Notes: a model not told the origin generated them from the letters alone. Shown: positions 1 through 43,860, counted from the first letter of the stretch. The stretch: DNA of 64,000 bases from Eledone cirrhosa (GCA_964016885.1 OZ024742.1:371752001-371816000), one strand, 5' to 3'. Numbers and translations: made by a program.

Positions 1-896
1 AATGATAGCCTACCTACTCTAAATGATACAGTCTACCTACTCTAAATGATAGTCTACCTACTCTAAATGATACAGCCTACCTACTCTAAATGATACAGCC
101 TACCTACTCTAAATGATAGTCTACCTACTCTAAATGATACAGTGTACCTACTCTAAATGATAGTCTACCTACTCTAAATGATACAGTCTACCTACTCTAA
201 ATGATAGTCTACCTACTCTAAATGATAGTCTACCTACTCTAAATGATAGTCTACCTACTCTAAATGATAGTCTACCTACTCTAAATGATACAGTCTACCT
301 ACTCTAAATGATAGTCTACCTACTCTAAATGATACAGTCTACCTACTCTAAATGATAGTCTACCTACTCTAAATGATAGTCTACCTACTCTAAATGATAG
401 TCTACCTACTCTAAATGATAGTCTACCTACTCTAAATGATAGTCTACCTACTCTAAATGATAGAGCCTACCTACTCTAAATGATAGTCTACCTACTCTAA
501 ATAATACAACCTACCTGCTCTAAATGATAGCCTACCTACTCTAAATGATAGTTTACCTACCCTAAATGATAGTCTACCTACTCTAAATGATACAGTCTAT
601 CTACTCTAAATAATAGTCTACCTACTCTAAATAATGGTCTACCTACTCTAAATGATACAGTCTACCTATTCTAAATGATAGTCTACCTACTCTAAATAAT
701 GGTCTACCTACTCTAAATGTTACAGTCTACCTACTCTAAATGATAGTCTACCTACTCTAAATGATACAGCCTACCTACTCTAAATGATACAGTCTACCTA
801 CTCTAAATGATAGTCTACCTACTTTAAATAATACAGACTACCTACTCTAAATAATAGTCTACCTACTCTAAATGATAGTCTACCTACTCTAAATGA

Positions 897-993
897 TAGA
901 CTGTAGTATTTAGAGTAGGTAGACTATCATTTAGAGTAGGTAGACTATCATTTAGAGTAGATAGACTGTATTATTTAGAGTAGGTAGACTATC
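897..993 (-). repeat. About four satellite units in inverted orientation
   Basis: TAGACTGTAGTATTTAGAGTAGGTAGACTATCATTTAGAGTAGG... is the reverse complement of the array unit. Confidence 0.95.
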
Positions 994-3900
994 TACTCTA
1001 AATGATAGTCTACCTACTCTAAATGATAGTCTACCTACTCTAAATAATAGTCTACCTACTCTAAATGATAGTCTACCTACTCTAAATGATACAGTCTACC
1101 TACTCTAAATGATACAGTCTACCTACTCTAAATGATACAGTCTACCTACTCTAAATGATACAGCCTACCTACTCTAAATGATAGTCTACCTACTCTAAAT
1201 AATAGTCTACCTACTCTAAATGATAGTCTACCTACTCTAAATGATACAGTCTACCTACTCTAAATGATAGTCTACCTACTCTAAATAATAGTCTACCTAC
1301 TCTAAATGATAGTCTACCTACTCTAAATGATACAGTTTACCTACTCTAAATGATAGTTTACCTACTCGAAATGATAGTCTACCTACTCTAAATAATACAG
1401 TCTACCTACTCTAAATGATAGTCTACCTACTCTAAATGATAGCCTACCTACTCTAAATGATAGTCTACCTGTTCTAAATAATAGTCTACCTACTCTAAAT
1501 GATAGTCTACCTACTCTAAATGATACAGCCTACCTACTCTAAATGACAGTCTACCTACTCTAAATAATACAGCCTACCTACTCTAAATGATAGTCTACCT
1601 ACTCTAAATGATAGCCTACCTACTCTAAATAATACAGTCTACCTACTCTAAATAATAGTCTACCTACTCTAAATGATAGCCTACCTACTCTAAATAATAC
1701 AGTCTACCTACTCTAAATGATAGTCTACCTACTCTAAATGATACAGCCTACCTACTCTAAATGATAGTCTACCTACTCTAAATGATACAGCCTACCTACT
1801 CTAAATGATACAGCCTACCTACTCTAAATTATACAGTCTAGCTACTCTAAATGATAGTCTACCTACTCTAAATGATACAGCCTACCTACTCTAAATGATA
1901 GTCTACCTACTCTAAATGATACAGTCTACTTTCTCTAAATGATAGCCTACCTACTCTAAATAATACAGTCTACCTACTCTAAACGATAGTCTTCCTACTC
2001 TAAATGATAGTCTACCTGCTCTAAATAATAGTCTACCTACTCTAAATGATAGTCTACCTACTCTAAATGATAGTCTACCTACTCTAAGTGATAGTCTACC
2101 TACTCTAAGTGATAGTCTACCTACTCTAAGTGATTGTCTACCTACTCTAAATGATAGTCTACCTACTCTAAATGATAGCCTACCTACTCTAAATAATACA
2201 GTCTACCTACTCTAAATAATAGTCTACCTACTCTAAATGATAGCCTACCTACTCTAAATAATACAGTCTACCTACTCTAAATGATAGTCTACCTACTCTA
2301 AATGATACAGCCTACCTACTCTAAATGATAGTCTACCTACTCTAAATGATACAGCCTACCTACTCTAAATGATACAGCCTACCTACTCTAAATGATACAG
2401 TCTACCTACTCTAAATGATAGTCTACCTACTCTAAATGATACAGCCTACCTACTCTAAATGATAGTCTACCTACTCTAAATGATAGTCTACCTACTCTAA
2501 ATGATAGTCTACCTACTCTAAATAATAGTCTACCTACTCTAAATAATAGTCTACCTACTCTAAATAATAGTCTACCTACTCTAAATAATAGTCTACCTAC
2601 TCTAAATAATAGTCTACCTACTCTAAATAATAGCCTACCTACTCTAAATGATACAGCCTACCTACTCTAAATAATAGTCTACCTGCTCTAAATGATACAG
2701 TCTACCTACTCTAAATAATAGTCTACCTACTTTAAATGATAGTCTACCTACTCTAAATGATAGTCTACCTACTCTAAATAATAGACTACCTACTCTAAAT
2801 GATAGTCTACCTACTCTAAATGATACAGTCTACCTACTCTAAATGATAGCCTACCTACTCTAAATGATACAGTCTACCTACTCTAAATGATAGTCTACCT
2901 ACTCTAAATGATACAGCCTACCTACTCTAAATGATACAGCCTACCTACTCTAAATGATACAGTCTACCTACTCTAAATGATAGTCTACCTACTCTAAATG
3001 ATACAGTGTACCTACTCTAAATGATAGCCTACCTACTCTAAATGATACAGTCTACCTACTCTAAATGATAGTCTACCTACTCTAAATGATACAGTCTACC
3101 TACTCTAAATGATAGTCTACCTACTCTAAATGATAGTCTACCTACTCTAAATGATAGAGCCTACCTACTCTAAATGATAGTCTACCTACTCTAAATAATA
3201 CAACCTACCTGCTCTAAATGATAGCCTACCTACTCTAAATGATAGTTTACCTACCCTAAATGATAGTCTACCTACTCTAAATGATACAGTCTATCTACTC
3301 TAAATAATAGTCTACCTACTCTAAATAATGGTCTACCTACTCTAAATGATACAGTCTACCTATTCTAAATGATAGTCTACCTACTCTAAATAATGGTCTA
3401 CCTACTCTAAATGTTACAGTCTACCTACTCTAAATGATAGTCTACCTACTCTAAATGATACAGCCTACCTACTCTAAATGATACAGTCTACCTACTCTAA
3501 ATGATAGTCTACCTACTCTAAATAATACAGACTACCTACTCTAAATAATAGTCTACCTACTCTAAATGATAGTCTACCTACTCTAAATGATAGTCTACCT
3601 ACTCTAAATGATAGTCTACCTACTCTAAATGATAGTCTACCTACTCTAAATGATACAGCCTACCTACTCTAAATGATACAGCCTCCCTACTCTAAATGAT
3701 AGTCTACCTACTCTAAATGATAGTCTACCTACTCTAAATGATAGTCTACCTACTCTCAATGATAGTCTACCTACTGTAAATAATAGTCTACCTACTCTAA
3801 ATAATACAGTCTACCTACTCTAAATGATAGTCTACCTACTCTAAATGATAGTCTACCTACTCTAAATGATAGTCTACCTACTCTAAATGATACAGTCTAC

Positions 3901-6480
3901 CTACTCTAAATGATACAGCCTACCTACTCTAAATGATAGCCTACCTACTCTAAATGATAGTCTACCTACTCTAAATGATACAGTCTACCTACTCTAAATG
4001 ATAGTCTACCTACTCTAAATGATAGTCTACCTACTCTAAATAATAGTCTACCTACTCTAAATGATACAGTCTACCTACTCTAAATGATAGTCTACCTACT
4101 CTAAATGATACAGTCTACCTACTCTAAATGATAGTCTACCTACTCTAAATGATAGTCTACCTACTCTAAATGATACAGTCTACCTACTCTAAATGATAGT
4201 CTACCTACTCTAAATGATACAGCCTACCTACTCTAAATGATACAGTCTACCTACTCTAAATGATACAGTCTACCTACTCTAAATGATAGTCTACCTACTC
4301 TAAATGATACAGTCTACCTACTCTAAATGATAGAGTCTACCTACTCTAAATGATAGCCTACCTACTCTAAATGATAGTCTACCTACTCTAAATAATAGTC
4401 TACCTACTCTACATAATAGTCTACCACTCTAAATGATACAGTCTACCTACTCTAAATGATACAGCCTACCTACTCTAAATGATAGTCTACCTACTCTAAA
4501 TGATACAGTCTACCTACTCTAAATGATACAGTCTACCTACTCTAAATGATAGTCTACCTACTCTAAATGATACAGTCTACCTACTCTAAATGATAGTCTA
4601 CCTACTCTAAATGATACAGTCTACCTACTCTAAATGATACAGTCTACCTACTCTAAATGATAGCCTACCTACTCTAAATAATACAGTCTACCTACTCTAA
4701 ATGATACAGTCTACCTACTCTAAATGATAGTCTACCTACTCTAAATGATACAGTCTACCTACTCTAAATGATACAGCCTACCTGCTCTAAATAATAGTCT
4801 ACCTACTCTAAATGATAGTCTACCTACTCTAAATGATAGTCTACCTACTCTAAATAATAGTCTACCTACTCTAAATAATAGTCTACCTACTCTAAATAAT
4901 ACAGCCTACCTACTCTAAATGATAGTCTACCTACTCTAAATAATAGTCTACCTACTCTAAATGATACAGCCTACCTACTCTAAATGATAGTCTACCTACT
5001 CTAAATAATAGTCTACCTACTCTAAATGATACAGTCTACCTACTCTAAATGATAGTCTACCTACTCTAAATAATAGTCTACCTACTCTAAATGATACAGT
5101 CTACCTACTCTAAATAATAGTCTACCTACTCTAAATGATACAGCCTACCGACTCTAAATGATACAGCCTACCTACTCTAAATGATAGTCTACCTACTCTA
5201 AATGATAGTCTACCTACTCTAAATGATGGTCTACCTACTCTAAATAATAGTCTACCTGCTCTAAATAATAGTCTACCTACTCTAAATGATAGTCTACCTA
5301 CTTTAAATAATACAGCCTACCTACTCTAAATGATAGTTTACCTACTCTAAATGATAGTCTACCTACTCTAAATAATAGTCTACCTACTCTAAATGATAGT
5401 CTACCTACTCTAAATGATAGTCTACCTACTCTAAATGATAGAGCCTACCTACTCTAAATGATAGTCTACCTACTCTAAATGATGGTCTACCTACTCTAAA
5501 TAATAGTCTACCTGCTCTAAATAATAGTCTACCTACTCTAAATGATAGTCTACCTACTCTAAATGATACAGTCTACCTACTCTAAATGATAGCCTACCTA
5601 CTCTAAATGATACAGTCTACCTACTCTAAATGATAGTCTACCTACTCTAAATGATACAGCCTACCTACTCTAAATGATACAGCCTACCTACTCTAAATGA
5701 TACAGTCTACCTACTCTAAATGATAGTCTACCTACTCTAAATGATAGTCTACCTACTCTAAATGATACAGTGTACCTACTCTAAATGATAGTCTACCTAC
5801 TCTAAATGATACAGTCTACCTACTCTAAATGATAGTCTACCTACTCTAAATGATAGTCTACCTACTCTAAATGATAGTCTACCTACTCTAAATGATAGTC
5901 TACCTACTCTAAATGATACAGTCTACCTACTCTAAATGATAGTCTACCTACTCTAAATGATAGTCTACCTACTCTAAATGATAGTCTACCTACTCTAAAT
6001 GATAGTCTACCTACTCTAAATGATAGTCTACCTACTCTAAATGATAGAGCCTACCTACTCTAAATGATAGTCTACCTACTCTAAATAATACAACCTACCT
6101 GCTCTAAATGATAGCCTACCTACTCTAAATGATAGTTTACCTACCCTAAATGATAGTCTACCTACTCTAAATGATACAGTCTATCTACTCTAAATAATAG
6201 TCTACCTACTCTAAATAATGGTCTACCTACTCTAAATGATACAGTCTACCTATTCTAAATGATAGTCTACCTACTCTAAATAATGGTCTACCTACTCTAA
6301 ATGTTACAGTCTACCTACTCTAAATGATAGTCTACCTACTCTAAATGATACAGCCTACCTACTCTAAATGATACAGTCTACCTACTCTAAATGATAGTCT
6401 ACCTACTTTAAATAATACAGACTACCTACTCTAAATAATAGTCTACCTACTCTAAATGATAGTCTACCTACTCTAAATGA

Positions 6481-6577
6481 TAGACTGTAGTATTTAGAGT
6501 AGGTAGACTATCATTTAGAGTAGGTAGACTATCATTTAGAGTAGATAGACTGTATTATTTAGAGTAGGTAGACTATC
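6481..6577 (-). repeat. Second copy of the same inverted block, offset 5584 bp
   Basis: Same sequence as 897-993, including the TAGATAGACTGTATTATTT variant. Confidence 0.95.
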
Positions 6578-9500
6578 TACTCTAAATGATAGTCTACCTA
6601 CTCTAAATGATAGTCTACCTACTCTAAATAATAGTCTACCTACTCTAAATGATAGTCTACCTACTCTAAATGATACAGTCTACCTACTCTAAATGATACA
6701 GTCTACCTACTCTAAATGATACAGTCTACCTACTCTAAATGATACAGCCTACCTACTCTAAATGATAGTCTACCTACTCTAAATAATAGTCTACCTACTC
6801 TAAATGATAGTCTACCTACTCTAAATGATACAGTCTACCTACTCTAAATGATAGTCTACCTACTCTAAATAATAGTCTACCTACTCTAAATGATAGTCTA
6901 CCTACTCTAAATGATACAGTTTACCTACTCTAAATGATAGTTTACCTACTCGAAATGATAGTCTACCTACTCTAAATAATACAGTCTACCTACTCTAAAT
7001 GATAGTCTACCTACTCTAAATGATAGCCTACCTACTCTAAATGATAGTCTACCTGCTCTAAATAATAGTCTACCTACTCTAAATGATAGTCTACCTACTC
7101 TAAATGATACAGCCTACCTACTCTAAATGACAGTCTACCTACTCTAAATAATACAGCCTACCTACTCTAAATGATAGTCTACCTACTCTAAATGATAGCC
7201 TACCTACTCTAAATAATACAGTCTACCTACTCTAAATAATAGTCTACCTACTCTAAATGATAGCCTACCTACTCTAAATAATACAGTCTACCTACTCTAA
7301 ATGATAGTCTACCTACTCTAAATGATACAGCCTACCTACTCTAAATGATAGTCTACCTACTCTAAATGATACAGCCTACCTACTCTAAATGATACAGCCT
7401 ACCTACTCTAAATTATACAGTCTAGCTACTCTAAATGATAGTCTACCTACTCTAAATGATACAGCCTACCTACTCTAAATGATAGTCTACCTACTCTAAA
7501 TGATACAGTCTACTTTCTCTAAATGATAGCCTACCTACTCTAAATAATACAGTCTACCTACTCTAAACGATAGTCTTCCTACTCTAAATGATAGTCTACC
7601 TGCTCTAAATAATAGTCTACCTACTCTAAATGATAGTCTACCTACTCTAAATGATAGTCTACCTACTCTAAGTGATAGTCTACCTACTCTAAGTGATAGT
7701 CTACCTACTCTAAGTGATTGTCTACCTACTCTAAATGATAGTCTACCTACTCTAAATGATAGCCTACCTACTCTAAATAATACAGTCTACCTACTCTAAA
7801 TAATAGTCTACCTACTCTAAATGATAGCCTACCTACTCTAAATAATACAGTCTACCTACTCTAAATGATAGTCTACCTACTCTAAATGATACAGCCTACC
7901 TACTCTAAATGATAGTCTACCTACTCTAAATGATACAGCCTACCTACTCTAAATGATACAGCCTACCTACTCTAAATGATACAGTCTACCTACTCTAAAT
8001 GATAGTCTACCTACTCTAAATGATACAGCCTACCTACTCTAAATGATAGTCTACCTACTCTAAATGATAGTCTACCTACTCTAAATGATAGTCTACCTAC
8101 TCTAAATAATAGTCTACCTACTCTAAATAATAGTCTACCTACTCTAAATAATAGTCTACCTACTCTAAATAATAGTCTACCTACTCTAAATAATAGTCTA
8201 CCTACTCTAAATAATAGCCTACCTACTCTAAATGATACAGCCTACCTACTCTAAATAATAGTCTACCTGCTCTAAATGATACAGTCTACCTACTCTAAAT
8301 AATAGTCTACCTACTTTAAATGATAGTCTACCTACTCTAAATGATAGTCTACCTACTCTAAATAATAGACTACCTACTCTAAATGATAGTCTACCTACTC
8401 TAAATGATACAGTCTACCTACTCTAAATGATAGCCTACCTACTCTAAATGATACAGTCTACCTACTCTAAATGATAGTCTACCTACTCTAAATGATACAG
8501 CCTACCTACTCTAAATGATACAGCCTACCTACTCTAAATGATACAGTCTACCTACTCTAAATGATAGTCTACCTACTCTAAATGATACAGTGTACCTACT
8601 CTAAATGATAGCCTACCTACTCTAAATGATACAGTCTACCTACTCTAAATGATAGTCTACCTACTCTAAATGATACAGTCTACCTACTCTAAATGATAGT
8701 CTACCTACTCTAAATGATAGTCTACCTACTCTAAATGATAGAGCCTACCTACTCTAAATGATAGTCTACCTACTCTAAATAATACAACCTACCTGCTCTA
8801 AATGATAGCCTACCTACTCTAAATGATAGTTTACCTACCCTAAATGATAGTCTACCTACTCTAAATGATACAGTCTATCTACTCTAAATAATAGTCTACC
8901 TACTCTAAATAATGGTCTACCTACTCTAAATGATACAGTCTACCTATTCTAAATGATAGTCTACCTACTCTAAATAATGGTCTACCTACTCTAAATGTTA
9001 CAGTCTACCTACTCTAAATGATAGTCTACCTACTCTAAATGATACAGCCTACCTACTCTAAATGATACAGTCTACCTACTCTAAATGATAGTCTACCTAC
9101 TCTAAATAATACAGACTACCTACTCTAAATAATAGTCTACCTACTCTAAATGATAGTCTACCTACTCTAAATGATAGTCTACCTACTCTAAATGATAGTC
9201 TACCTACTCTAAATGATAGTCTACCTACTCTAAATGATACAGCCTACCTACTCTAAATGATACAGCCTCCCTACTCTAAATGATAGTCTACCTACTCTAA
9301 ATGATAGTCTACCTACTCTAAATGATAGTCTACCTACTCTCAATGATAGTCTACCTACTGTAAATAATAGTCTACCTACTCTAAATAATACAGTCTACCT
9401 ACTCTAAATGATAGTCTACCTACTCTAAATGATAGTCTACCTACTCTAAATGATAGTCTACCTACTCTAAATGATACAGTCTACCTACTCTAAATGATAC

Positions 9501-12500
9501 AGCCTACCTACTCTAAATGATAGCCTACCTACTCTAAATGATAGTCTACCTACTCTAAATGATACAGTCTACCTACTCTAAATGATAGTCTACCTACTCT
9601 AAATGATAGTCTACCTACTCTAAATAATAGTCTACCTACTCTAAATGATACAGTCTACCTACTCTAAATGATAGTCTACCTACTCTAAATGATACAGTCT
9701 ACCTACTCTAAATGATAGTCTACCTACTCTAAATGATAGTCTACCTACTCTAAATGATACAGTCTACCTACTCTAAATGATAGTCTACCTACTCTAAATG
9801 ATACAGCCTACCTACTCTAAATGATACAGTCTACCTACTCTAAATGATACAGTCTACCTACTCTAAATGATAGTCTACCTACTCTAAATGATACAGTCTA
9901 CCTACTCTAAATGATAGAGTCTACCTACTCTAAATGATAGCCTACCTACTCTAAATGATAGTCTACCTACTCTAAATAATAGTCTACCTACTCTACATAA
10001 TAGTCTACCACTCTAAATGATACAGTCTACCTACTCTAAATGATACAGCCTACCTACTCTAAATGATAGTCTACCTACTCTAAATGATACAGTCTACCTA
10101 CTCTAAATGATACAGTCTACCTACTCTAAATGATAGTCTACCTACTCTAAATGATACAGTCTACCTACTCTAAATGATAGTCTACCTACTCTAAATGATA
10201 CAGTCTACCTACTCTAAATGATACAGTCTACCTACTCTAAATGATAGCCTACCTACTCTAAATAATACAGTCTACCTACTCTAAATGATACAGTCTACCT
10301 ACTCTAAATGATAGTCTACCTACTCTAAATGATACAGTCTACCTACTCTAAATGATACAGCCTACCTGCTCTAAATAATAGTCTACCTACTCTAAATGAT
10401 AGTCTACCTACTCTAAATGATAGTCTACCTACTCTAAATAATAGTCTACCTACTCTAAATAATAGTCTACCTACTCTAAATAATACAGCCTACCTACTCT
10501 AAATGATAGTCTACCTACTCTAAATAATAGTCTACCTACTCTAAATGATACAGCCTACCTACTCTAAATGATAGTCTACCTACTCTAAATAATAGTCTAC
10601 CTACTCTAAATGATACAGTCTACCTACTCTAAATGATAGTCTACCTACTCTAAATAATAGTCTACCTACTCTAAATGATACAGTCTACCTACTCTAAATA
10701 ATAGTCTACCTACTCTAAATGATACAGCCTACCGACTCTAAATGATACAGCCTACCTACTCTAAATGATAGTCTACCTACTCTAAATGATAGTCTACCTA
10801 CTCTAAATGATGGTCTACCTACTCTAAATAATAGTCTACCTGCTCTAAATAATAGTCTACCTACTCTAAATGATAGTCTACCTACTTTAAATAATACAGC
10901 CTACCTACTCTAAATGATAGTTTACCTACTCTAAATGATAGTCTACCTACTCTAAATAATAGTCTACCTACTCTAAATAATAGTCTACCTACTCTAAATT
11001 ATAGTCTACCTACTCTAAATAATAGTTTACCTACTCTAAATGATAGTCTACCTACTCTAAATAAAATAGTCTACCTACTCTAAATAATAGTCTACCTACT
11101 CTAAATAATAGTCTACCTTCTCTAAATGATAGTATACCTACTCTAAATGATACAGCCTACCTACTCTAAATGATACAGCCTACATACTCTAAATGATACA
11201 ACCTACCTACTCTAAATGATAGTCTACCTACTCTAAATGATATTCTACCTACTCTAAATGATAGTCTACCTACTCTAAATAATAGTCTACCTACTCTAAA
11301 TGATAGTATACCTACTCTAAATGATACAGTCTACCTACTCTAAATGATACAGCCTACCTACTCTAAATGATAGTCTACCTATTCTAAATGATAGTCTACC
11401 TACTCTAAATGATACAGTCTACCTATTCTAAATGATAGTCTACCTACTCTAAATGATACAGCCTACCTACTCTAAATGATACGGTCTACCTACTCTAAAT
11501 GATAGTCTACCTACTCTAAATGATACAGCCTACCTACTCTAAATGATAGTCTACCTACTCTAAATGATAGTGTACGTCCTCTAAATAATAGCCTACCTAC
11601 TCTAAATGATAGTCTACCTACTCTAAATGATAGTCTACCTACTCTAAATGATAGTCTACCTACTCTAAATGATACAGTCTACCTACTCTAAATGATAGTC
11701 TACCTACTCTAAATGATACAGTCTACCTACTCTAAATGATAGTCTACCTACTCTAAATGATACAGTCTACCTACTCTAAATGATACAGTCTACCTACTCT
11801 AAATGATAGCCTACCTACTCTAAATGATAGTCTACCTACTCTAAATAATAGTCTACCTACTCTAAATAATAGTCTACCACTCTAAATTATACAGTCTACC
11901 TACTCTAAATGATACAGCCTACCTACTCTAAATGATAGTCTACCTACTCTAAATGATACAGTCTACCTACTCTAAATGATACAGTGTACCTACTCTAAAT
12001 GATAGTCTACCTACTCTAAATGATACAGTCTACCTACTCTAAATGATAGTCTACCTACTCTAAATGATACAGTCTACCTACTCTAAATGATACAGTCTAC
12101 CTACTCTAAATGATAGCCTACCTACTATAAATAATACAGTCTACCTACTCTAAATGATACAGTCTACCTACTCTAAATGATAGTCTACCTACTCTAAATG
12201 ATACAGTCTACCTACTCTAAATGATACAGCCTACCTGCTCTAAATAATAGTCTACCTACTCTAAATGATAGTCTACCTACTCTAAATGATAGTCTACCTA
12301 CTCTAAATAATAGTCTACCTACTCTAAATAATAGTCTACCTACTCTAAATAATACAGCCTACCTACTCTAAATGATAGTCTACCTACTCTAAATAATAGT
12401 CTACCTACTCTAAATGATACAGCCTACCTACTCTAAATGATAGTCTACCTACTCTAAATAATAGTCTACCTACTCTAAATGATACAGTCTACCTACTCTA

Positions 12501-15500
12501 AATGATAGTCTACCTACTCTAAATAATAGTCTACCTACTCTAAATGATACAGCCTACCTACTCTAAATGATACAGTCTACCTACTCTAAATGATACAGTC
12601 TACCTACTCTAAATGATAGTCTACCTACTCTAAATGATACAGTCTACCTACTCTAAATGATACAGTCTACCTACTCTAAATGATAGCCTACCTACTCTAA
12701 ATGATAGTCTACCTACTCTAAATAATAGTCTACCTACTCTAAATAATAGTCTACCACTCTAAATGATACAGTCTACCTACTCTAAATGATACAGCCTACC
12801 TACTCTAAATGATAGTCTACCTACTCTAAATGATACAGTCTACCTACTCTAAATGATACAGTCTACCTACTCTAAATGATAGTCTACCTACTCTAAATGA
12901 TACAGTCTACCTACTCTAAATGATAGTCTACCTACTCTAAATGATACAGTCTACCTACTCTAAATGATACAGTCTACCTACTCTAAATGATACAGCCTAC
13001 CTGCTCTAAATAATAGTCTACCTACTCTAAATGATAGTCTACCTACTCTAAATGATAGTCTACCTACTCTAAATAATAGTCTACCTACTCTAAATAATAG
13101 TCTACCTACTCTAAATAATACAGCCTACCTACTCTAAATGATAGTCTACCTACTCTAAATAATAGTCTACCTACTCTAAATGATACAGCCTACCTACTCT
13201 AAATGATAGTCTACCTACTCTAAATAATAGTCTACCTACTCTAAATGATACAGTCTACCTACTCTAAATGATAGTCTACCTACTCTAAATAATAGTCTAC
13301 CTACTCTAAATGATACAGTCTACCTACTCTAAATAATAGTCTACCTACTCTAAATGATACAGCCTACCGACTCTAAATGATACAGCCTACCTACTCTAAA
13401 TGATAGTCTACCTACTCTAAATGATAGTCTACCTACTCTAAATGATGGTCTACCTACTCTAAATAATAGTCTACCTGCTCTAAATAATAGTCTACCTACT
13501 CTAAATGATAGTCTACCTACTTTAAATAATACAGCCTACCTACTCTAAATGATAGTTTACCTACTCTAAATGATAGTCTACCTACTCTAAATAATAGTCT
13601 ACCTACTCTAAATAATAGTCTACCTACTCTAAATTATAGTCTACCTACTCTAAATAATAGTTTACCTACTCTAAATGATAGTCTACCTACTCTAAATAAA
13701 ATAGTCTACCTACTCTAAATAATAGTCTACCTACTCTAAATAATAGTCTACCTTCTCTAAATGATAGTATACCTACTCTAAATGATACAGCCTACCTACT
13801 CTAAATGATACAGCCTACATACTCTAAATGATACAACCTACCTACTCTAAATGATAGTCTACCTACTCTAAATGATATTCTACCTACTCTAAATGATAGT
13901 CTACCTACTCTAAATAATAGTCTACCTACTCTAAATGATAGTATACCTACTCTAAATGATACAGTCTACCTACTCTAAATGATACAGCCTACCTACTCTA
14001 AATGATAGTCTACCTATTCTAAATGATAGTCTACCTACTCTAAATGATACAGTCTACCTATTCTAAATGATAGTCTACCTACTCTAAATGATAGTCTACC
14101 TACTCTAAATGATACAGCCTACCTACTCTAAATGATACGGTCTACCTACTCTAAATGATAGTCTACCTACTCTAAATGATACAGCCTACCTACTCTAAAT
14201 GATAGTCTACCTACTCTAAATGATAGTGTACGTCCTCTAAATAATAGTCTACCTACTCTAAATGATAGTATACCTACTCTAAATGATACAGTCTACCTAC
14301 TCTAAATGATACAGCCTACCTACTCTAAATGATAGTCTACCTATTCTAAATGATAGTCTACCTACTCTAAATGATACAGTCTACCTATTCTAAATGATAG
14401 TCTACCTACTCTAAATGATAGTCTACCTACTCTAAATGATACAGCCTACCTACTCTAAATGATACAGCCTACCTACTCTAAATGATAGTCTACCTACTCT
14501 AAATGATAGTCTACCTACTCTAAATGATAGTCTACCTACTCTAAATGATAGTCTACCTACTCTAAATGATACAGTCTACCTACTCTAAATGATAGTCTAC
14601 CTACTCTAAATGATACAGTCTACCTACTCTAAATGATAGTCTACCTACTCTAAATGATACAGCCTACCTACTCTAAATGATACAGTCTACCTACTCTAAA
14701 TGATAGTCTACCTACTCTAAATGATAGTCTACCTACTCTAAATGATACTCTACCTACTCTAAATGATACAGCCTACCTACTCTAAATGATACAGTCTACC
14801 TACTCTAAATGATACAGTTTACCTACTCTAAATGATAGTCTACCTACTCTAAATGATACAGTCTACCTACTCTAAATGATACAGTCTACCTACTCTAAAT
14901 GATAGCCTACCTACTCTAAATGATAGTCTACCTACTCTAAATAATAGTCTACCTACTCTAAATAATAGTCTACCACTCTAAATGATACAGTCTACCTACT
15001 CTAAATGATACAGCCTACCTACTCTAAATGATAGTCTACCTACTCTAAATGATACAGTCTACCTACTCTAAATGATACAGTCTACCTACTCTAAATGATA
15101 GTCTACCTACTCTAAATGATACAGTCTACCTACTCTAAATGATAGTCTACCTACTCTAAATGATACAGTCTACCTACTCTAAATGATACAGTCTACCTAC
15201 TCTAAATGATAGCCTACCTACTCTAAATAATACAGTCTACCTACTCTAAATGATACAGTCTACCTACTCTAAATGATAGTCTACCTACTCTAAATGATAC
15301 AGTCTACCTACTCTAAATGATACAGCCTACCTGCTCTAAATAATAGTCTACCTACTCTAAATGATAGTCTACCTACTCTAAATGATAGTCTACCTACTCT
15401 AAATAATAGTCTACCTACTCTAAATAATAGTCTACCTACTCTAAATAATACAGCCTACCTACTCTAAATGATAGTCTACCTACTCTAAATAATAGTCTAC

Positions 15501-27500: not shown

Positions 27501-30500
27501 TGATACAGTCTACCTACTCTAAATGATACAGTCTACCTACTCTAAATGATAGTCTACCTACTCTAAATGATACAGTCTACCTACTCTAAATGATAGTCTA
27601 CCTACTCTAAATGATACAGTCTACCTACTCTAAATGATACAGTCTACCTACTCTAAATGATAGCCTACCTACTCTAAATAATACAGTCTACCTACTCTAA
27701 ATGATACAGTCTACCTACTCTAAATGATAGTCTACCTACTCTAAATGATACAGTCTACCTACTCTAAATGATACAGCCTACCTGCTCTAAATAATAGTCT
27801 ACCTACTCTAAATGATAGTCTACCTACTCTAAATGATACTCTACCTACTCTAAATGATACAGCCTACCTACTCTAAATAATAGTCTACCTACTCTAAATA
27901 ATAGTCTACCTACTCTAAATAATACAGCCTACCTACTCTAAATGATAGTCTACCTACTCTAAATAATAGTCTACCTACTCTAAATAATAGTCTACCTACT
28001 CTAAATGATACAGCCTACCTACTCTAAATGATAGTCTACCTACTCTAAATGATACAGTCTACCTACTCTAAATGATACAGCCTACCTACTCTAAATAATA
28101 GTCTACCTACTCTAAATAATAGTCTACCTACTCTAAATAATACAGCCTACCTACTCTAAATGATAGTCTACCTACTCTAAATAATAGTCTACCTACTCTA
28201 AATGATACAGCCTACCTACTCTAAATGATAGTCTACCTACTCTAAATAATAGTCTACCTACTCTAAATGATACAGTCTACCTACTCTAAATGATAGTCTA
28301 CCTACTCTAAATAATAGTCTACCTACTCTAAATGATACAGTCTACCTACTCTAAATAATAGTCTACCTACTCTAAATGATACAGCCTACCGACTCTAAAT
28401 GATACAGCCTACCTACTCTAAATGATAGTCTACCTACTCTAAATGATAGTCTACCTACTCTAAATGATGGTCTACCTACTCTAAATAATAGTCTACCTGC
28501 TCTAAATAATAGTCTACCTACTCTAAATGATAGTCTACCTACTTTAAATAATACAGCCTACCTACTCTAAATGATAGTTTACCTACTCTAAATGATAGTC
28601 TACCTACTCTAAATGATAGTCTACCTACTCTAAATGATGGTCTACCTACTCTAAATAATAGTCTACCTGCTCTAAATAATAGTCTACCTACTCTAAATGA
28701 TAGTCTACCTACTTTAAATAATACAGCCTACCTACTCTAAATGATAGTCTACCTACTCTAAATTATAGTCTACCTACTCTAAATAATAGTTTACCTACTC
28801 TAAATGATAGTCTACCTACTCTAAATAAAATAGTCTACCTACTCTAAATAATAGTCTACCTACTCTAAATAATAGTCTACCTTCTCTAAATGATAGTATA
28901 CCTACTCTAAATGATACAGCGTACCTACTCTAAATGATACAGCCTACATACTCTAAATGATACAACCTACCTACTCTAAATGATAGTCTACCTACTCTAA
29001 ATGATATTCTACCTACTCTAAATGATAGTCTACCTACTCTAAATAATAGTCTACCTACTCTAAATGATAGTATACCTACTCTAAATGATACAGTCTACCT
29101 ACTCTAAATGATACAGCCTACCTACTCTAAATGATAGTCTACTTACTCTAAATGATAGTCTACCTACTCTAAATGATACAGTCTACCTATTCTAAATGAT
29201 AGTCTACCTACTCTAAATGATACAGCCTACCTACTCTAAATGATACGGTCTACATACTCTAAATGATAATCTACCTACTCTAAATGATACAGTCTACCTA
29301 CTCTAAATGATAGCCTACCTACTCTAAATAATACAGTCTACCTACTCTAAATGATACAGTCTACCTACTCTAAATGATAGTCTACCTACTCTAAATGATA
29401 CAGCCTACCTACTCTAAATAATAGTCTACCTACTCTAAATGATAGTCTACCTACTGTAAATAATAGTCTACCTACTCTAAATGATACAGTCTAACTACTC
29501 TAAATGATAGCCTACCTACTCTAAATGATATAGTCTACCTACTCTAAATAATAGTCTACCTACTCTAAATGATACAGTCTACCTACTCTAAATGATAGTC
29601 TACCTACTCTAAATGATACAGTCTACCTACTCTAAATGATAGTCTACCTACTCTAAATGATACAGTCTACCTACTCTAAATGATAGCCTACCTACTCTAA
29701 ATGATACAGTCTACCTACTCTAAATGATAGTCTACCTACTCTAAATGATAGTCTACCTACTCTAAATGATACAGCCTACCTACTCTAAATGATAGTCTAC
29801 CTACTCTAAATGATAGTCTACCTACTCTAAATGATAGACTACCTACTCTAAATGATAGTCTACCTACTCTAAATGATACAGTCTACCTACTCTAAATGAT
29901 AGTCTACCTACTCTAAATGATAGTCTACCTACTCTAAATGATACAGTCTACCTACTCTAAATGATAGTCTACCTACTCTAAATAATACAGACTACCTACT
30001 CTAAATAATAGTCTACCTACTCTAAATGATAGTCTACCTACTCTAAATGATAGTCTACCTACTCTAAATGATACAGCCTACCTACTCTAAATGATACGGT
30101 CTACCTACTCTAAATGATAGTCTACCTACTCTAAATGATACAGCCTACCTACTCTAAATGATAGTCTACCTACTCTAAATGATAGTGTACGTCCTCTAAA
30201 TGATAGTCTACCTACTCTAAATGATAGTCTACCTACTCTAAATGATAGTCTACCTACTCTAAATGATAGTCTACCTACTCTAAATGATACAGTCTACCTA
30301 CTCTAAATGATAGTCTACCTACTCTAAATGATACAGTCTACCTACTCTAAATGATAGTCTACCTACTCTAAATGATACAGCCTACCTACTCTAAATGATA
30401 CAGTCTACCTACTCTAAATGATAGTCTACCTACTCTAAATGATAGTCTACCTACTCTAAATGATACTCTACCTACTCTAAATGATACAGCCTACCTACTC

Positions 30501-33500
30501 TAAATGATACAGCCTACCTACTCTAAATGATAGTCTACCTACTCTAAATGATAGTCTACCTACTCTAAATGATGGTCTACCTACTCTAAATAATAGTCTA
30601 CCTGCTCTAAATAATAGTCTACCTACTCTAAATGATAGTCTACCTACTTTAAATAATACAGCCTACCTACTCTAAATGATAGTTTACCTACTCTAAATGA
30701 TAGTCTACCTACTCTAAATAATAGTCTACCTACTCTAAATAATAGTCTACCTACTCTAAATTATAGTCTACCTACTCTAAATAATAGTTTACCTACTCTA
30801 AATGATAGTCTACCTACTCTAAATAAAATAGTCTACCTACTCTAAATAATAGTCTACCTACTCTAAATAATAGTCTACCTTCTCTAAATGATAGTATACC
30901 TACTCTAAATGATACAGCCTACCTACTCTAAATGATACAGCCTACATACTCTAAATGATACAACCTACCTACTCTAAATGATAGTCTACCTACTCTAAAT
31001 GATATTCTACCTACTCTAAATGATAGTCTACCTACTCTAAATAATAGTCTACCTACTCTAAATGATAGTCTACCTACTCTAAATGATACAGTCTACCTAC
31101 TCTAAATGATACAGCCTACCTACTCTAAATGATAGTCTACCTATTCTAAATGATAGTCTACCTACTCTAAATGATACAGTCTACCTATTCTAAATGATAG
31201 TCTACCTACTCTAAATGATACAGTCTACCTACTCTAAATGATACAGCCTACCTACTCTAAATGATAGTCTACCTATTCTAAATGATAGTCTACCTACTCT
31301 AAATGATACAGTCTACCTATTCTAAATGATAGTCTACCTACTCTAAATGATACAGCCTACCTACTCTAAATGATACGGTCTACCTACTCTAAATGATAGT
31401 CTACCTACTCTAAATGATACAGCCTACCTACTCTAAATGATAGTCTACCTACTCTAAATGATAGTGTACGTCCTCTAAATAATAGCCTACCTACTCTAAA
31501 TGATAGTCTACCTACTCTAAATGATAGTCTACCTACTCTAAATGATAGTCTACCTACTCTAAATGATACAGTCTACCTACTCTAAATGATACAGTCTACC
31601 TACTCTAAATGATAGCCTACCTACTATAAATAATACAGTCTACCTACTCTAAATGATACAGTCTACCTACTCTAAATGATAGTCTACCTACTCTAAATGA
31701 TACAGTCTACCTACTCTAAATGATACAGCCTACCTGCTCTAAATAATAGTCTACCTACTCTAAATGATAGTCTACCTACTCTAAATGATAGTCTACCTAC
31801 TCTAAATAATAGTCTACCTACTCTAAATAATAGTCTACCTACTCTAAATAATACAGCCTACCTACTCTAAATGATAGTCTACCTACTCTAAATAATAGTC
31901 TACCTACTCTAAATGATACAGCCTACCTACTCTAAATGATAGTCTACCTACTCTAAATAATAGTCTACCTACTCTAAATGATACAGTCTACCTACTCTAA
32001 ATGATAGTCTACCTACTCTAAATAATAGTCTACCTACTCTAAATGATACAGCCTACCTACTCTAAATGATACAGTCTACCTACTCTAAATGATACAGTCT
32101 ACCTACTCTAAATGGTAGTCTACCTACTCTAAATGATACAGTCTACCTACTCTAAATGATACAGTCTACCTACTCTAAATGATAGCCTACCTACTCTAAA
32201 TGATAGTCTACCTACTCTAAATAATAGTCTACCTACTCTAAATAATAGTCTACCACTCTAAATGATACAGTCTACCTACTCTAAATGATACAGCCTACCT
32301 ACTCTAAATGATAGTCTACCTACTCTAAATGATACAGTCTACCTACTCTAAATGATACAGTCTACCTACTCTAAATGATAGTCTACCTACTCTAAATGAT
32401 ACAGTCTACCTACTCTAAATGATAGTCTACCTACTCTAAATGATACAGTCTACCTACTCTAAATGATACAGTCTACCTACTCTAAATGATAGCCTACCTA
32501 CTCTAAATGATACAGTCTACCTACTCTAAATGATACAGTCTACCTACTCTAAATAATGGTCTACCTACTCTAAATGATAGTCTACCTACTCTAAATGATA
32601 GTCTACCTACTCTAAATAATACAGTCTACCTACTCTAAATGATACAGCCTACCTGCTCTAAATGATAGTCTACCTACTCTAAATGATAGCCTACCTACTC
32701 TAAATAATACAGTCTACCTACTCTAAATGATACAGTCTACCTACTCTAAATGATAGTCTACCTACTCTAAATGATACAGTCTACCTACTCTAAATGATAC
32801 AGCCTACCTGCTCTAAATAATAGTCTACCTACTCTAAATGATAGTCTACCTACTCTAAATGATAGTCTACCTACTCTAAATAATAGTCTACCTACTCTAA
32901 ATAATAGTCTACCTACTCTAAATAATACAGCCTACCTACTCTAAATGATAGTCTACCTACTCTAAATAATAGTCTACCTACTCTAAATGATACAGCCTAC
33001 CTACTCTAAATGATAGTCTACCTACTCTAAATAATAGTCTACCTACTCTAAATGATACAGTCTACCTACTCTAAATGATAGTCTACCTACTCTAAATAAT
33101 AGTCTACCTACTCTAAATGATACAGTCTACCTACTCTAAATAATAGTCTACCTACTCTAAATGATACAGCCTACCGACTCTAAATGATACAGCCTACCTA
33201 CTCTAAATGATAGTCTACCTACTCTAAATGATAGTCTACCTACTCTAAATGATGGTCTACCTACTCTAAATAATAGTCTACCTGCTCTAAATAATAGTCT
33301 ACCTACTCTAAATGATAGTCTACCTACTTTAAATAATACAGCCTACCTACTCTAAATGATAGTTTACCTACTCTAAATGATAGTCTACCTACTCTAAATA
33401 ATAGTCTACCTACTCTAAATAATAGTCTACCTACTCTAAATTATAGTCTACCTACTCTAAATAATAGTTTACCTACTCTAAATGATAGTCTACCTACTCT

Positions 33501-36500
33501 AAATAAAATAGTCTACCTACTCTAAATAATAGTCTACCTACTCTAAATAATAGTCTACCTTCTCTAAATGATAGTATACCTACTCTAAATGATACAGCCT
33601 ACCTACTCTAAATGATACAGCCTACATACTCTAAATGATACAACCTACCTACTCTAAATGATAGTCTACCTACTCTAAATGATATTCTACCTACTCTAAA
33701 TGATAGTCTACCTACTCTAAATAATAGTCTACCTACTCTAAATGATAGTATACCTACTCTAAATGATACAGTCTACCTACTCTAAATGATAGTCTACCTA
33801 TTCTAAATGATAGTCTACCTACTCTAAATGATACAGTCTACCTATTCTAAATGATAGCCTACCTACTCTAAATGATAGTCTACCTATTCTAAATGATAGT
33901 CTACCTACTCTAAATGATACAGTCTACCTATTCTAAATGATAGTCTACCTACTCTAAATGATAGTCTACCTACTCTAAATGATACAGCCTACCTACTCTA
34001 AATAATAGTCTACCTACTCTAAATGATAGTATACCTACTCTAAATGATACAGTCTACCTACTCTAAATGATAGTCTACCTATTCTAAATGATAGTCTACC
34101 TACTCTAAATGATAGTCTACCTACTCTAAATGATAGTCTACCTACTCTAAATGATACAGCCTACCTACTCTAAATGATAGTCTACCTACTCTAAATGATA
34201 GTGTACGTCCTCTAAATAATAGCCTACCTACTCTAAATGATAGTCTACCTACTCTAAATGATAGTCTACCTACTCTAAATGATAGTCTACCTACTCTAAA
34301 TGATACAGTCTACCTACTCTAAATGATAGTCTACCTACTCTAAATGATACAGTCTACCTACTCTAAATGATAGTCTACCTACTCTAAATGATACAGCCTA
34401 CCTACTCTAAATGATACAGTCTACCTACTCTAAATGATAGTCTACCTACTCTAAATGATAGTCTACCTACTCTAAATGATACTCTACCTACTCTAAATGA
34501 TACAGCCTACCTACTCTAAATGATACAGTCTACCTACTCTAAATGATACAGTTTACCTACTCTAAATGATGGTCTACCTACTCTAAATGATACAGTCTAC
34601 CTACTCTAAATGATACAGTCTACCTACTCTAAATGATAGCCTACCTACTCTAAATGATAGTCTACCTACTCTAAATAATAGTCTACCTACTCTAAATAAT
34701 AGTCTACCACTCTAAATGATACAGTCTACCTACTCTAAATGATACAGCCTACCTACTCTAAATGATACTCTACCTACTCTAAATGATACAGTCTACCTAC
34801 TCTAAATGATACAGTCTACCTACTCTAAATGATAGTCTACCTACTCTAAATGATACAGTCTACCTACTCTAAATGATAGTCTACCTACTCTAAATGATAC
34901 AGTCTACCTACTCTAAATGATACAGTCTACCTACTCTAAATGATAGCCTACCTACTCTAAATAATACAGTCTACCTACTCTAAATGATACAGTCTACCTA
35001 CTCTAAATGATAGTCTACCTACTCTAAATGATACAGTCTACCTACTCTAAATGATACAGCCTACCTGCTCTAAATAATAGTCTACCTACTCTAAATGATA
35101 GTCTACCTACTCTAAATGATAGTCTACCTACTCTAAATAATAGTCTACCTACTCTAAATAATAGTCTACCTACTCTAAATAATACAGCCTACCTACTCTA
35201 AATGATAGTCTACCTACTCTAAATAATAGTCTACCTACTCTAAATAATAGTCTACCTACTCTAAATGATACAGTCTACCTACTCTAAATGATAGTCTACC
35301 TACTCTAAATAATAGTCTACCTACTCTAAATGATACAGTCTACCTACTCTAAATAATAGTCTACCTACTCTAAATGATACAGCCTACCGACTCTAAATGA
35401 TACAGCCTACCTACTCTAAATGATAGTCTACCTACTCTAAATGATAGTCTACCTACTCTAAATGATGGTCTACCTACTCTAAATAATAGTCTACCTGCTC
35501 TAAATAATAGTCTACCTACTCTAAATGATAGTCTACCTACTTTAAATAATACAGCCTACCTACTCTAAATGATAGTTTACCTACTCTAAATGATAGTCTA
35601 CCTACTCTAAATAATAGTCTACCTACTCTAAATAATAGTCTACCTACTCTAAATTATAGTCTACCTACTCTAAATAATAGTTTACCTACTCTAAATGATA
35701 GTCTACCTACTCTAAATAAAATAGTCTACCTACTCTAAATAATAGTCTACCTACTCTAAATAATAGTCTACCTTCTCTAAATGATAGTATACCTACTCTA
35801 AATGATACAGCGTACCTACTCTAAATGATACAGCCTACATACTCTAAATGATACAACCTACCTACTCTAAATGATAGTCTACCTACTCTAAATGATATTC
35901 TACCTACTCTAAATGATAGTCTACCTACTCTAAATAATAGTCTACCTACTCTAAATGATAGTATACCTACTCTAAATGATACAGTCTACCTACTCTAAAT
36001 GATACAGCCTACCTACTCTAAATGATAGTCTACTTACTCTAAATGATAGTCTACCTACTCTAAATGATACAGTCTACCTATTCTAAATGATAGTCTACCT
36101 ACTCTAAATGATACAGCCTACCTACTCTAAATGATACGGTCTACATACTCTAAATGATAATCTACCTACTCTAAATGATACAGTCTACCTACTCTAAATG
36201 ATAGCCTACCTACTCTAAATAATACAGTCTACCTACTCTAAATGATACAGTCTACCTACTCTAAATGATAGTCTACCTACTCTAAATGATACAGCCTACC
36301 TACTCTAAATAATAGTCTACCTACTCTAAATGATAGTCTACCTACTCTAAATAATAGTCTACCTACTCTAAATGATACAGTCTAACTACTCTAAATGATA
36401 GCCTACCTACTCTAAATGATATAGTCTACCTACTCTAAATAATAGTCTACCTACTCTAAATGATACAGTCTACCTACTCTAAATGATAGTCTACCTACTC

Positions 36501-39500
36501 TAAATGATACAGTCTACCTACTCTAAATGATAGTCTACCTACTCTAAATGATACAGTCTACCTACTCTAAATGATAGCCTACCTACTCTAAATGATACAG
36601 TCTACCTACTCTAAATGATAGTCTACCTACTCTAAATGATACAGCCTACCTACTCTAAATAATAGTCTACCTACTCTAAATGATAGTCTACCTACTCTAA
36701 ATGATAATCTACCTACTCTAAATGATACAGCCTACCTACTCTAATTGATAGTCTACCTACTCTAAATGATACAGTCTACCTACTCTAAATGATAGTCTAC
36801 CTACTCTAAATGATAGTCTACCTACTCTAAATGATAGTCTACCTACTCTAAATGATAGTCTACCTACTCTAAATGATAGTCTACCTACTCTAAATGATAG
36901 TCTACCTACTCTAAATGATAGTCTACCTACTCTAAATGATAGTCTACCTACTTTAAATGATAGTCTACCTACTCTAAATGATAGTCTACCTACTCTAAAT
37001 AATAGTCTACCTACTCTAAATGATAGTCTACGTACTCTAAATGATAGTCTGCCTACTCTAAATGATAGTCTACCTACTCTAAATGATACAGTCTACCTAC
37101 TCTAAATGATAGTCTACCTACTCTAAATGATACAGCCTACCTACTCTAAATGATACAGTCTACCTACTCTAAATGATAGTCTACCTACTCTAAATGATAG
37201 TTTACCTACTCTAAATGATAGTTTACCTACTCTAAATGATAGTCTACCTACTCTAAATGATAGTCTACCTACTCTAAATGATAGTCTACCTACTCTAAAT
37301 GATACAGCCTACCTACTCTAAATGATAGTCTACCTACTCTAAATAATACAGCCTACCTGCTCTAAATGATAGCCTACCTACTCTAAATGATAGTTTACCT
37401 ACTCTAAATGATAGTCTACCTACTCTAAATGATAGTCTACCTACTCTAAATAATAGTCTACCTACTCTAAATGATAGTCTACCTACTCTAAATGATAGTC
37501 TACCTACTCTAAATAATACAGCCTACCTGCTCTAAATGATAGTCTACCTACTCTAAATAATAGTCTACCTACTCTAAATGATAGTCAACCTACTCTAAAT
37601 AATGGTCTACCTACTCTAAATGATACAGTGTACCTTTTCTAAATGATAGTCTACCTACTCTAAATAATGGTCTACCTACTCTAAATGATACAGTCTACCT
37701 ACTCTAAATAATAGTCTACCTACTCTAAATGATAGTCTACCTACTCTAAATGATAGTCTACCTACTCTAAATGATACAGCCTACCTACTCTAAATGATAT
37801 AGTCTACCTACTCTAAATGATACAGTCTACCTACTCTAAATGAAAGTCTACCTACTCTAAATAATACAGACTACCTACTCTAAATAATAGTCTACCTACT
37901 CTAAATGATAGTCTACCTACGCTAAATGATAGTCTACCTACTCTAAATGATAGTCTACCTACTCTTAATAATACAGTCTCCCTACTCTAAATGATTGTCT
38001 ACCTACTCTAAATAATGGTCTACCTACTCTAAATGATACAGTCTACCTATTCTAAATGATAGTCTACCTACTCTAAATGATAGTCTACCTACTCTAAATG
38101 ATAGTCTACCTACTCTAAATGATAGTCTACCTACTCTAAATGATACAGCCTACCTACTCTAAATGATACAGCCTCCCTACTCTAAATGATAGTCTACCTA
38201 CTCTAAATGATAGTCTACCTACTCTAAATGATAGTCTACCTACTCTCAATGATAGTCTACCTACTGTAAATAATAGTCTACCTACTCTAAATAATACAGT
38301 CTACCTACTCTAAATGATAGTCTACCTACTCTAAATGATAGTCTACCTACTCTAAATGATAGTCTACCTACTCTAAATGATACAGCCTATCTACTCTAAA
38401 TGATACAGCCTCCCTACTCTAAATGATAGTCTACCTACTCTAAATGATAGTCTACCTACTCTAAATGATAGTCTACCTACTCTCAATGATAGTCTACCTA
38501 CTCTCAATGATAGTCTACCTACTCTAAATGATAGTCTACCTACTCTAAATGATAGTCTACCTACTCTAAATGATACAGCCTACCTACTCTAAATAATAGC
38601 CTACCTACTCTAAATGATACAGTCTACCTACTCTAAATGATACAGTCTACCTACTGTAAATAATACAGCCTACCTACTCTAAATGATAGTCTACCTACTC
38701 TAAATGATACAGCCTACCTACTCTAAATGATAGTCTACCTACTCTAAATGATAGTCTACCTACTCTAAATGATACAGCCTACCTACTCTAAATGATAGTC
38801 TAACTACTCTAAATAATAGTCTACCTACTCTAAATGATAGTCTACCTACTCTAAATAATAGTCTACCTACTCTAAATGATAGTGTACCTACTCTAAATGA
38901 TAGTCTACCTACTCTAAATGATAGTCTACCTACTCTAAATAATAGTCTACCTACTCTAAATGATACAGCCTACCTACTCTAAATGATAGTCTACCTACTC
39001 TAAATAATAGTCTACCTACTCTAAATGATAGTCTACCTACTCTAAATAATAGTCTACCTACTCTAAATAATAGTCTACCTACTCTAAATGATAGTCTACC
39101 TACTCTAAATAATAGTCTACCTACTCTAAATGATAGTCTACCTACTCTAAATAATAGTCTACCTTCTCTAAATGATAGTATACCTACTCTAAATGATACA
39201 GCCTACCTACTCTAAATGATACAGCCTACATACTCTAAATGATACAACCTACCTACTCTAAATGATAGTCTACCTACTCTAAATGATATTCTACCTACTC
39301 TAAATGATAGTCTACCTACTCTAAATAATAGTCTACCTTCTCTAAATGATAGTATATCTACTCTAAATGATACAGCCTACCTACTCTAAATGATAGTCTA
39401 CCTTCTCTAAATAATACAGCCTACCTACTCTAAATGATAGTTTACCTACTCTAAATGATAGTCTACCTACTCTAAATGATACAGCCTACCTACTCTAACT

Positions 39501-40263
39501 GATAGTCTAACTACTCTAAATAATAGTCTACCTACTCTAAATGATAGTCTACCTACTCTAAATAATAGTCTACCTACTCTAAATAATAGTCTACCTACTC
39601 TAAATGATAGTCTACCTACTCTAAATGATAGTCTACCTACTCTAAATGATAGTCTACCTACTCTAAATAATAGTCTACCTACTCTAAATGATACAGCCTA
39701 CCTACTCTAAATGATAGTCTACCTACTCTAAATAATAGTCTGCCTACTCTAAATGATAGTCTACCTACTCTAAATAATAGTCTACCTACTCTAAATAATA
39801 GTCTACCTACTCTAAATGATAGTCTACCTACTCTAAATAATAGTCTACCTACTCTAAATGATAGTCTACCTACTCTAAATAATAGTCTACCTACTCTAAA
39901 TAATAGTCTACCTATTCTAAATAATAGTCCACCTACTCTAAATAATAGTCTACCTATACTAAACCAAAAACACAATTATGTAATACATGTATATAATTTC
40001 ATCCTTTTAACACCTATTTTCCCTACTAACAAGACTTGGGTGGATCATTACAGATTATGTCAGTACTTGAGCTACTTTACTTTTAAATGGGTTGGGGCCC
40101 CATTTCCTGTTTACATACATTCCTGCACTCAACAGAGTGCACAGGGTGCATTTTACCATAGGACAAGCATCAAAGAGGTTGGGTGGGGGAACTGTCGTGT
40201 CTTTAAAACATCTGAAGAGCGTACCTAATCCTTTGTATTTGTTTTGTGTAAGAAGTTAGTTAA

Positions 40264-40282
40264 TCCTTGACCTGTGTGTCAG
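40264..40282 (+). promoter_or_regulatory. U12-type (minor spliceosome) branch point and 3' splice site
   Basis: TCCTTGAC at 40264-40271 matches the U12 branch consensus TTCCTTRAC. The branch A (40270) is 12 nt from the end of the AG (40281-40282). There is no polypyrimidine tract (CTGTGTGTCAG) and the intron is phase 1. Confidence 0.8.
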
Positions 40283-40410
40283 TATTTCGCCACTGCCCAT
40301 TCCTAAATCAATACGCCGAAGAAGTAGACAAACGGTTTGAAGATTGGAAGCAATACAAGATGAGTGTTCCTACATATGGTGCCATTATTTTGGATCCAGA
40401 GATGAAGTTT
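40283..40410 (+). CDS. DCP2: DCP2 internal coding exon (probably equivalent to vertebrate exon 3): xFRHCPFLNQYAEEVDKRFEDWKQYKMSVPTYGAIILDPEMKF
   Basis: AG|...|GTAAGT boundaries, 128 bp. The W-x-x-Y-K-x-x-V-P-x-Y-G-A-I-I-L motif marks the end of the Dcp2 BoxA domain and the start of the Nudix domain. Confidence 0.93.
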
Positions 40411-42980: not shown

Positions 42981-43047
42981 GAAAGAGGGAGAGAGGGGTT
43001 GGGGGAAAGACATTACCTGTATTCATTCAGTTTGTCTCCTTTTTCAG

Positions 43048-43146
43048 GTGTTACTTGTTCAAGGTTACTGGGCCAAATCTAGCTGGGGGTTCCCAAAAGG
43101 TAAAATTAATGAAGATGAAACAGAACAAGAATGTGCAGTGAGAGAG
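43048..43146 (+). CDS. DCP2: DCP2 coding exon: [33 protein letters not shown] (first half of the Nudix box)
   Basis: TTTTTCAG|GTG ... GAG|GTAAGT, 99 bp, phase 0/0. Contains WGFPKGK and GX5EX7RE. Confidence 0.95.
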
Positions 43147-43171
43147 GTAAGTAGTTCTATAGTTTATGTCA

Positions 43172-43528: not shown

Positions 43529-43560
<32 letters not shown>

Positions 43561-43856: not shown

Positions 43857-43860
43857 AGTG

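Follow-up and report, generated by a model that had tools for sequence, protein, structure and literature searches.

A Satellite-Filled U12-Type Intron in the DCP2 Gene of Eledone cirrhosa

Results

The DCP2 Gene and Its Intron 2

We analysed a stretch of 64,000 nucleotides from Eledone cirrhosa, OZ024742.1:371752001-371816000 (here called the window), which corresponds to G000:C3:371752001-371816000 on the 378.9-Mb contig C3. The window contains part of the gene for the decapping protein DCP2 and arrays of tandem repeats in its introns (positions are those of the window):

1..40282, + strand: 3′ 40.3 kb of DCP2 intron 2 (U12, GT-AG, phase 1)
1..39963, + strand: 3′ part of the intron 2 array, 21-bp unit, 1,840 copies, 90% matches (TRF)
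897..992, − strand: inverted array segment, 96 bp
6481..6576, − strand: inverted array segment, 96 bp, copied with the surrounding block
39964..40282, + strand: non-satellite 3′ end of intron 2 (319 unique bases)
40264..40271, + strand: U12 branch site TCCTTGAC, presumed branch A at 40270 (−13), single TCCTTRAC of the intron
40283..40410, + strand: DCP2 exon 3, 128 nt, with protein match, joined to its neighbours, exons 2 and 4, by a contig from run X4
40756..42592, + strand: 47-bp array in U2 intron 3
43048..43146, + strand: DCP2 exon 4
50886..51038, + strand: DCP2 exon 5
51172..51692, + strand: 28-bp array in U2 intron 5
52328..52440, + strand: DCP2 exon 6
52493..64000, + strand: start of the 108.8-kb array of 70-bp units that fills U2 intron 6

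The translation of exon 3 (42 residues) is 100% identical to the m7GpppN-mRNA hydrolase of Octopus vulgaris and 98% identical to the protein from Argonauta. A profile search located the sole PF05026 match of the genome 88 kb upstream of the window, in an exon that ends with AAA/GTATCCTTTT. The initial annotation, which was made from the sequence of the window, had postulated an upstream exon 2 with a U12 donor; this exon was found together with the donor GTATCCTTT about 87.8 kb before the window (intron start G000:C3:371664160). Intron 2 extends over G000:C3:371664160-371792282, contains no N and is in phase 1. The predicted minimum size of 40 kb is exceeded, the actual length being 128,123 bp. 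A break or mis-join between the two parts of the gene had also been considered; there is no N in 436 kb, and nine collinear exons form a single open frame that shows 88.7% identity along the whole O. vulgaris protein. DCP2 spans 418 kb and is encoded at one locus, with no second copy found in the genome. Exon 8 (25 nt, G000:C3:371946878-371946902) was overlooked by the protein search.

Two U2 introns of the gene reach a similar size. Intron 1 (G000:C3:371535429-371664007) is 128,579 bp long and consists to 75% of tandem repeats with a 43-bp unit, and intron 6 (109,838 bp) is 99% tandem repeat with a 70-bp unit. The 43-bp unit brings 2,220 sense AATAAA motifs into intron 1, and yet there is a spliced contig of full-length size (see below). 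Dispersed relatives of the 40-, 47-, 28- and 70-bp units were detected at 21, 10, 7 and 12 of the 40 loci searched, respectively, and none of the 53-, 45- and 30-bp units at 40 loci. By eye, the 70-bp unit (52493-64000) resembles the head region of a SINE derived from a tRNA. Searches with Rfam (39900-53500) and ARAGORN (52400-54000) gave no matches that would support such an origin. Remnants that look by eye like LINE reverse transcriptases are located in intron 4, at about 44500-46300 and 47200-49900.

Both Ends of Intron 2 Carry U12-Type Splice Signals

The border between exon 2 and intron 2 reads AAA/GTATCCTTT. It belongs to the U12 donor class RTATCCTT and is the sole [GA]TATCCTT within 262 kb; the ordinary GTRAG donor that had been named as the alternative is not present at this border. 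The acceptor is TTAATCCTTGACCTGTGTGTCAG, ending at 40282, and has the U12 branch consensus that the initial annotation described, with the presumed branch A at −13 in TCCTTGAC, and no pyrimidine tract. Donor and branch motif each occur once in intron 2, at its opposite ends. The flanking exons are short (152 nt for exon 2, 128 nt for exon 3), and at the end facing away from intron 2 each has an ordinary U2 site. Intron 2 of DCP2 is therefore a U12-type, phase-1 intron filled with satellite DNA.

In a genome-wide search the pattern of branch motif plus AG gave 88 matches versus 96 in the reversed control, which is the chance level and yields no list of further U12 introns. Because the branch motif alone is not significant, the U12 assignment rests on the rarity of the donor, on the unique motifs placed at the two ends and on the contig joint described below. 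The true sites did not stand out in duplex-energy scans: 509 windows were at least as good as the donor and 37,561 at least as good as the branch site.

On the transcribed strand intron 2 contains 26 AATAAA and four GTRAG motifs. The GTRAG motifs all lie outside the array, three of them as donors in the first 1.6 kb of the intron, where one AG with a pyrimidine tract also occurs. Inside the array neither a GTRAG nor a pyrimidine-tract acceptor was found, and the whole intron is devoid of a second U12 donor or branch motif. The opposite strand contains 5,437 AGGTR, and the four inversions of the intron carry 21 AG/GTR motifs. Internal splice sites of matching class, by which recursive introns and twintrons are recognized, were not found in intron 2.

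The genome encodes U11, U12 and U6atac RNAs of the minor spliceosome: one U12 locus, two U11 loci and 15 U6atac matches above the Rfam cut-off were identified, and computed pairings show that U11, U12 and U6atac can pair with donor and branch site of intron 2. The 15 U6atac-like matches are spread over many contigs, compared with one U12 and two U11 loci, and most of them may be pseudogenes.

A Contig Joins Exons 2, 3 and 4

Four sequencing runs of one study contain the stretch, none of them listed as RNA. Three of them (X1-X3) cross it unspliced; the assembly may have been built from these, so that they provide no independent support. Run X4 was made from a different sample; the kind of run is not on record and is likely RNA. 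A contig of 1,519 nt from X4 covers only positions 40283-40412 of the window. On one side of this part it carries on with the final 30 letters of exon 2, and on the other with the beginning of exon 4. The joint of exons 2, 3 and 4 is unambiguous to the base, with 30 letters visible per side, in one contig from one of the four runs, X4 not being on record as RNA and sharing its study with DNA runs. The acceptor before 40283 is thus used as had been predicted, exon 3 being joined in this contig directly to exon 2. Beyond the matched part the contig extends by 333 nt upstream and 1,056 nt downstream. These stretches can hold the coding bases expected there (238 and about 900), which is consistent with a whole mRNA. 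Intron 2 is removed in this contig, which is likely derived from mRNA. A second X4 contig (151 nt, depth 2) covers positions 40038-40188; it could come from pre-mRNA or DNA and was set aside.

The Intron 2 Array Is Private to This Intron

The array comprises 125,766 bp of intron 2 (98%) in mixed 21- and 23-bp units, with about 5,800 copies according to TRF. Its share of positions 1-40282 is 99.2%, in agreement with the initial estimate of about 99%. Parsing of the array resulted in 5,465 pieces with 229 distinct units. The array is AT-rich (33% GC). Its commonest 24-mer has 1,708 forward and nine reverse exact matches genome-wide, all within intron 2; it is at the level of exact 24-mers that the array is private. 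The four inversions measure 96-274 bp each. Blocks of 2-8 kb are repeated within the array, the longest exact repeat being about 3.9 kb and none reaching 5 kb; 36% of the 200-mers are unique and the mixtures of units drift along the array.

The 5′ flank of the array is an old dispersed repeat that has 29 other matches (69-89%). An example copy of this repeat ends in the proto-unit of the array, and both edges of the array resemble this proto-unit. A related 52-bp array that stems from the dispersed repeat is located near the start of contig C5.

The idea that the array acts as a decoy for U12 was considered and rejected. Each array unit can form seven base pairs with the part of U12 snRNA that recognizes the branch site, at −7.8 kcal/mol versus −6.2 kcal/mol for the true site. 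Shuffled sequences were as good in 127 and 71 of 1,000 cases (two probe lengths), and the unit ranked only 7th of 96 unit strands.

DCP2 Lies in a Chromosome-End Zone Rich in Satellites

The DCP2 locus is located 7 Mb from the end of contig C3. Between 362 and 379 Mb, 10 of 17 10-kb samples consist to at least 60% of long array, each with its own unit; in the interior of the contig none did so (0 of 19 at 5-347 Mb, 0 of 4 at 350-359 Mb). At other contig ends, including the other end of C3, 13 of 39 6-kb samples were long array. The end-zone arrays have mostly different units of 16-90 bp; the starts of C2 and C3 share similar-looking 42-bp units.

As controls we used 50 loci for cullins, myosins and kinesins, assembled from collinear matches. 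Single hits, single-exon matches and whatever fell on small unplaced contigs were left out, as was a myosin group on C5 that had two hits. At least 500 bp per residue were reached by 4 of the 14 loci within 7 Mb of an end versus 0 of the 36 further in; the 7-Mb limit, like the 362-Mb limit above, was chosen after the data had been seen. Ten of the 14 distal genes have an ordinary size, and for two of the four giants the grouping is based on two hits. Overall, the span of the 50 control genes does not correlate with distance to the end (rho −0.11, p 0.44). One interior kinesin gene also spans 100 kb. The four giants are candidate kinesin or myosin genes near contig ends, the motor domain of which extends over 123-535 kb:

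C1:5887925-6422728
C12:50256282-50379124
C15:247141-401499
C3:886075-1200575

Of eight samples taken from gaps in these genes, two are satellite. Both come from the C1 gene and are pure satellite, and the six samples from the other candidates are not, showing that distal gigantism is not always driven by satellites.

An interior cullin gene contains a U12 intron of the AT-AC type inferred from its motifs (G000:C2:385743641 to about 385735510, − strand, about 8.1 kb).

Discussion

Origin and Removal of the Intron 2 Array

We propose that intron 2 of DCP2 has swollen near-neutrally with satellite DNA owing to its chromosome-end location and that the minor spliceosome likely removes it in a single step; we assign this reading a probability of roughly 0.8. 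Since two of the U2 introns in DCP2 are equally bloated, the size of intron 2 is likely a by-product and not a special device of minor introns. The swelling likely occurred because DCP2 sits in a zone of satellite growth at the chromosome end. The gigantism of intron 2 is likely a property of the gene neighbourhood and not of the minor class.

The array might have arisen from a tandem duplication of the end of the old dispersed repeat, which lies 2 kb downstream of the donor, and it could have grown by unequal exchange or conversion of blocks of 2-8 kb. Such growth would have been near-neutral. Other repeat fragments would likewise have expanded independently in introns 1, 3, 5, 6 and 7. For splicing, U11 and U6atac would take the sole U12 donor and U12 the sole branch site, while the short exons 2 and 3 may mark both ends of the intron via exon definition during transcription. 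The intron would then be removed in one step, the array offering no consensus site for a stepwise U12 reaction.

That the array has a function, as a timing or expression-damping device or as a platform for RNA-binding proteins that is coupled to slow U12 splicing and tunes the DCP2 level, is unlikely; functions of this kind have been proposed for the giant Y-linked genes of Drosophila. The orientation of the array would fit such a role: its transcribed strand is free of GTRAG and U12 motifs, whereas the opposite strand is rich in AGGTR, and the inversions have stayed short. Satellite introns of Y-linked Drosophila genes have moreover been reported to be transcribed over days. However, the orientation is a single observation, and the U12-decoy version of the idea failed its controls. 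The satellite is private and differs from intron to intron, and the much smaller DCP2 minor introns of human and mouse (6.1 and 3.6 kb) lack a comparable length. Intron 1 with its numerous sense AATAAA motifs indicates that signal-free filler is not needed in DCP2.

It is quite improbable that nested U2 introns are cut out from within, in a recursive or twintron-like manner, and that the minor spliceosome bridges a shortened remnant. Candidate sites for such a route exist in the first 1.6 kb of the intron and in the AG/GTR motifs of the inversions, and many AGs are present in the units, but the array itself has neither GTRAG nor pyrimidine-tract acceptors and the intron no second U12 donor or branch motif; the joint of exons 2 and 3 does not discriminate between the routes. 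It is highly improbable that the array was over-extended or mis-joined in the assembly and that the true intron is much shorter: the moderate share of unique 200-mers and the exact repeats up to 3.9 kb would allow such an error, but the sequence is free of N, the exons are collinear, no exact repeat reaches 5 kb, the unit mixtures drift, both edges resemble one proto-unit, and both flanks enter one private array, as the satellite is found only here.

Comparison with Known Introns

The minor intron of human and mouse DCP2 presumably lies at the codon position that matches intron 2 of Eledone; no solved structure covers the vertebrate DCP2 residues at this position. In the DCP2 model of Lottia about eight residues are missing just before the position of intron 2, as if the predictor had missed a U12 donor, which hints at a U12 intron at this place in other molluscs. 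The statement in the initial annotation that DCP2 is a minor-intron gene in vertebrates is borne out by the tabulated introns of Olthof et al. (2019; PMC6717393), where the gene is listed for human and mouse. The minor intron has an AT-type donor there and measures 6,134 bp in human and 3,599 bp in mouse. The human branch site listed there has the same TCCTTGAC core; the Eledone intron differs in being GT-AG and in its 128,123 bp.

Long minor introns as such are known. In the roughly 770 human rows of the table of PMC6717393, two minor introns have at least 100 kb, in FHIT (522,707 bp) and DIAPH2 (100,276 bp), and there are further long ones in SLC9A9 (94,503 bp) and EIF4G3 (86,961 bp); the FHIT donor is GTATCCTTT in human and mouse according to the same source. 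The size class is thus shared, whereas intron 2 consists to 98% of one tandem array with hardly any consensus splice motifs. According to Moyer (2020; PMC7367187), the length of U12 introns correlates with genome size (r 0.87) and U12 introns are biased against phase 0. Larue and Roy (2023; PMC10639083) report a correlation between the lengths of minor and major introns (rho 0.903).

The initial annotation had compared intron 2 with the Y-loop genes of Drosophila. This likeness is structural only, and a tie of the gigantism to the minor class is not supported, given the U2 introns of 128.6 and 109.8 kb and the many arrays of the end region. The Y-linked genes kl-3 and kl-5 have giant satellite introns that are transcribed and spliced out (Fingerhut 2024; PMC11207136); the terms "U12" and "minor spliceosome" are absent from the accessible text of that article. 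With 128 kb and 98% array, intron 2 falls at the lower end of the range of satellite introns from hundreds of kb to Mb that defines Y-loops. The satellite differs between introns or species in both systems; the Drosophila cases are, however, megabase introns in testis-specific genes, whereas in Eledone a presumably general decapping gene carries arrays of 0.1 Mb seeded by dispersed repeats.

Human subtelomeric VNTRs with units over 15 bp are enriched within 5 Mb of the ends, also in genes, and 21-fold if GC-rich (Linthorst 2020; PMC7608644). In contrast, arrays on C3 reach 100 kb and take up over half of the DNA sampled in the last 17 Mb, and the intron 2 array is AT-rich. The main text of the O. 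vulgaris repeat annotation (PMC13282606) contains neither "intron" nor "telomer", and in PMC4066798 DCP2 is named solely as a knock-down target. In the literature searched, which consisted mostly of openly readable papers, neither a U12 intron filled with satellite nor octopod end zones of this kind were found to be described.

Significance

Each ingredient of the Eledone case has a precedent, and a new mechanism is not shown by it. DCP2 intron 2 is a natural test of the distance and the sequence that the minor spliceosome can bridge, since between its single donor and its single branch site lie 126 kb of filler that is free of consensus sites. The equally large U2 introns of the gene are built-in controls. 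About 5,500 copies of a unit that occurs at a single locus are a ready single-gene probe for nascent-RNA FISH, with which transcription and U12 splicing can be timed.

A tentative generalization, which we regard as possible and somewhat doubtful, is that satellites expand in zones at the chromosome ends of octopods and that ordinary housekeeping genes located there reach 0.1-0.5 Mb, with a separate private array developing in each intron from a repeat fragment captured by it, and that in these zones the minor spliceosome bridges 126 kb of RNA devoid of consensus U1 or U12 sites in one step, with neither recursive splicing nor U1 protection inside the array. For the octopod genome, such zones of gene gigantism at the chromosome ends mean that gene annotation will break there.
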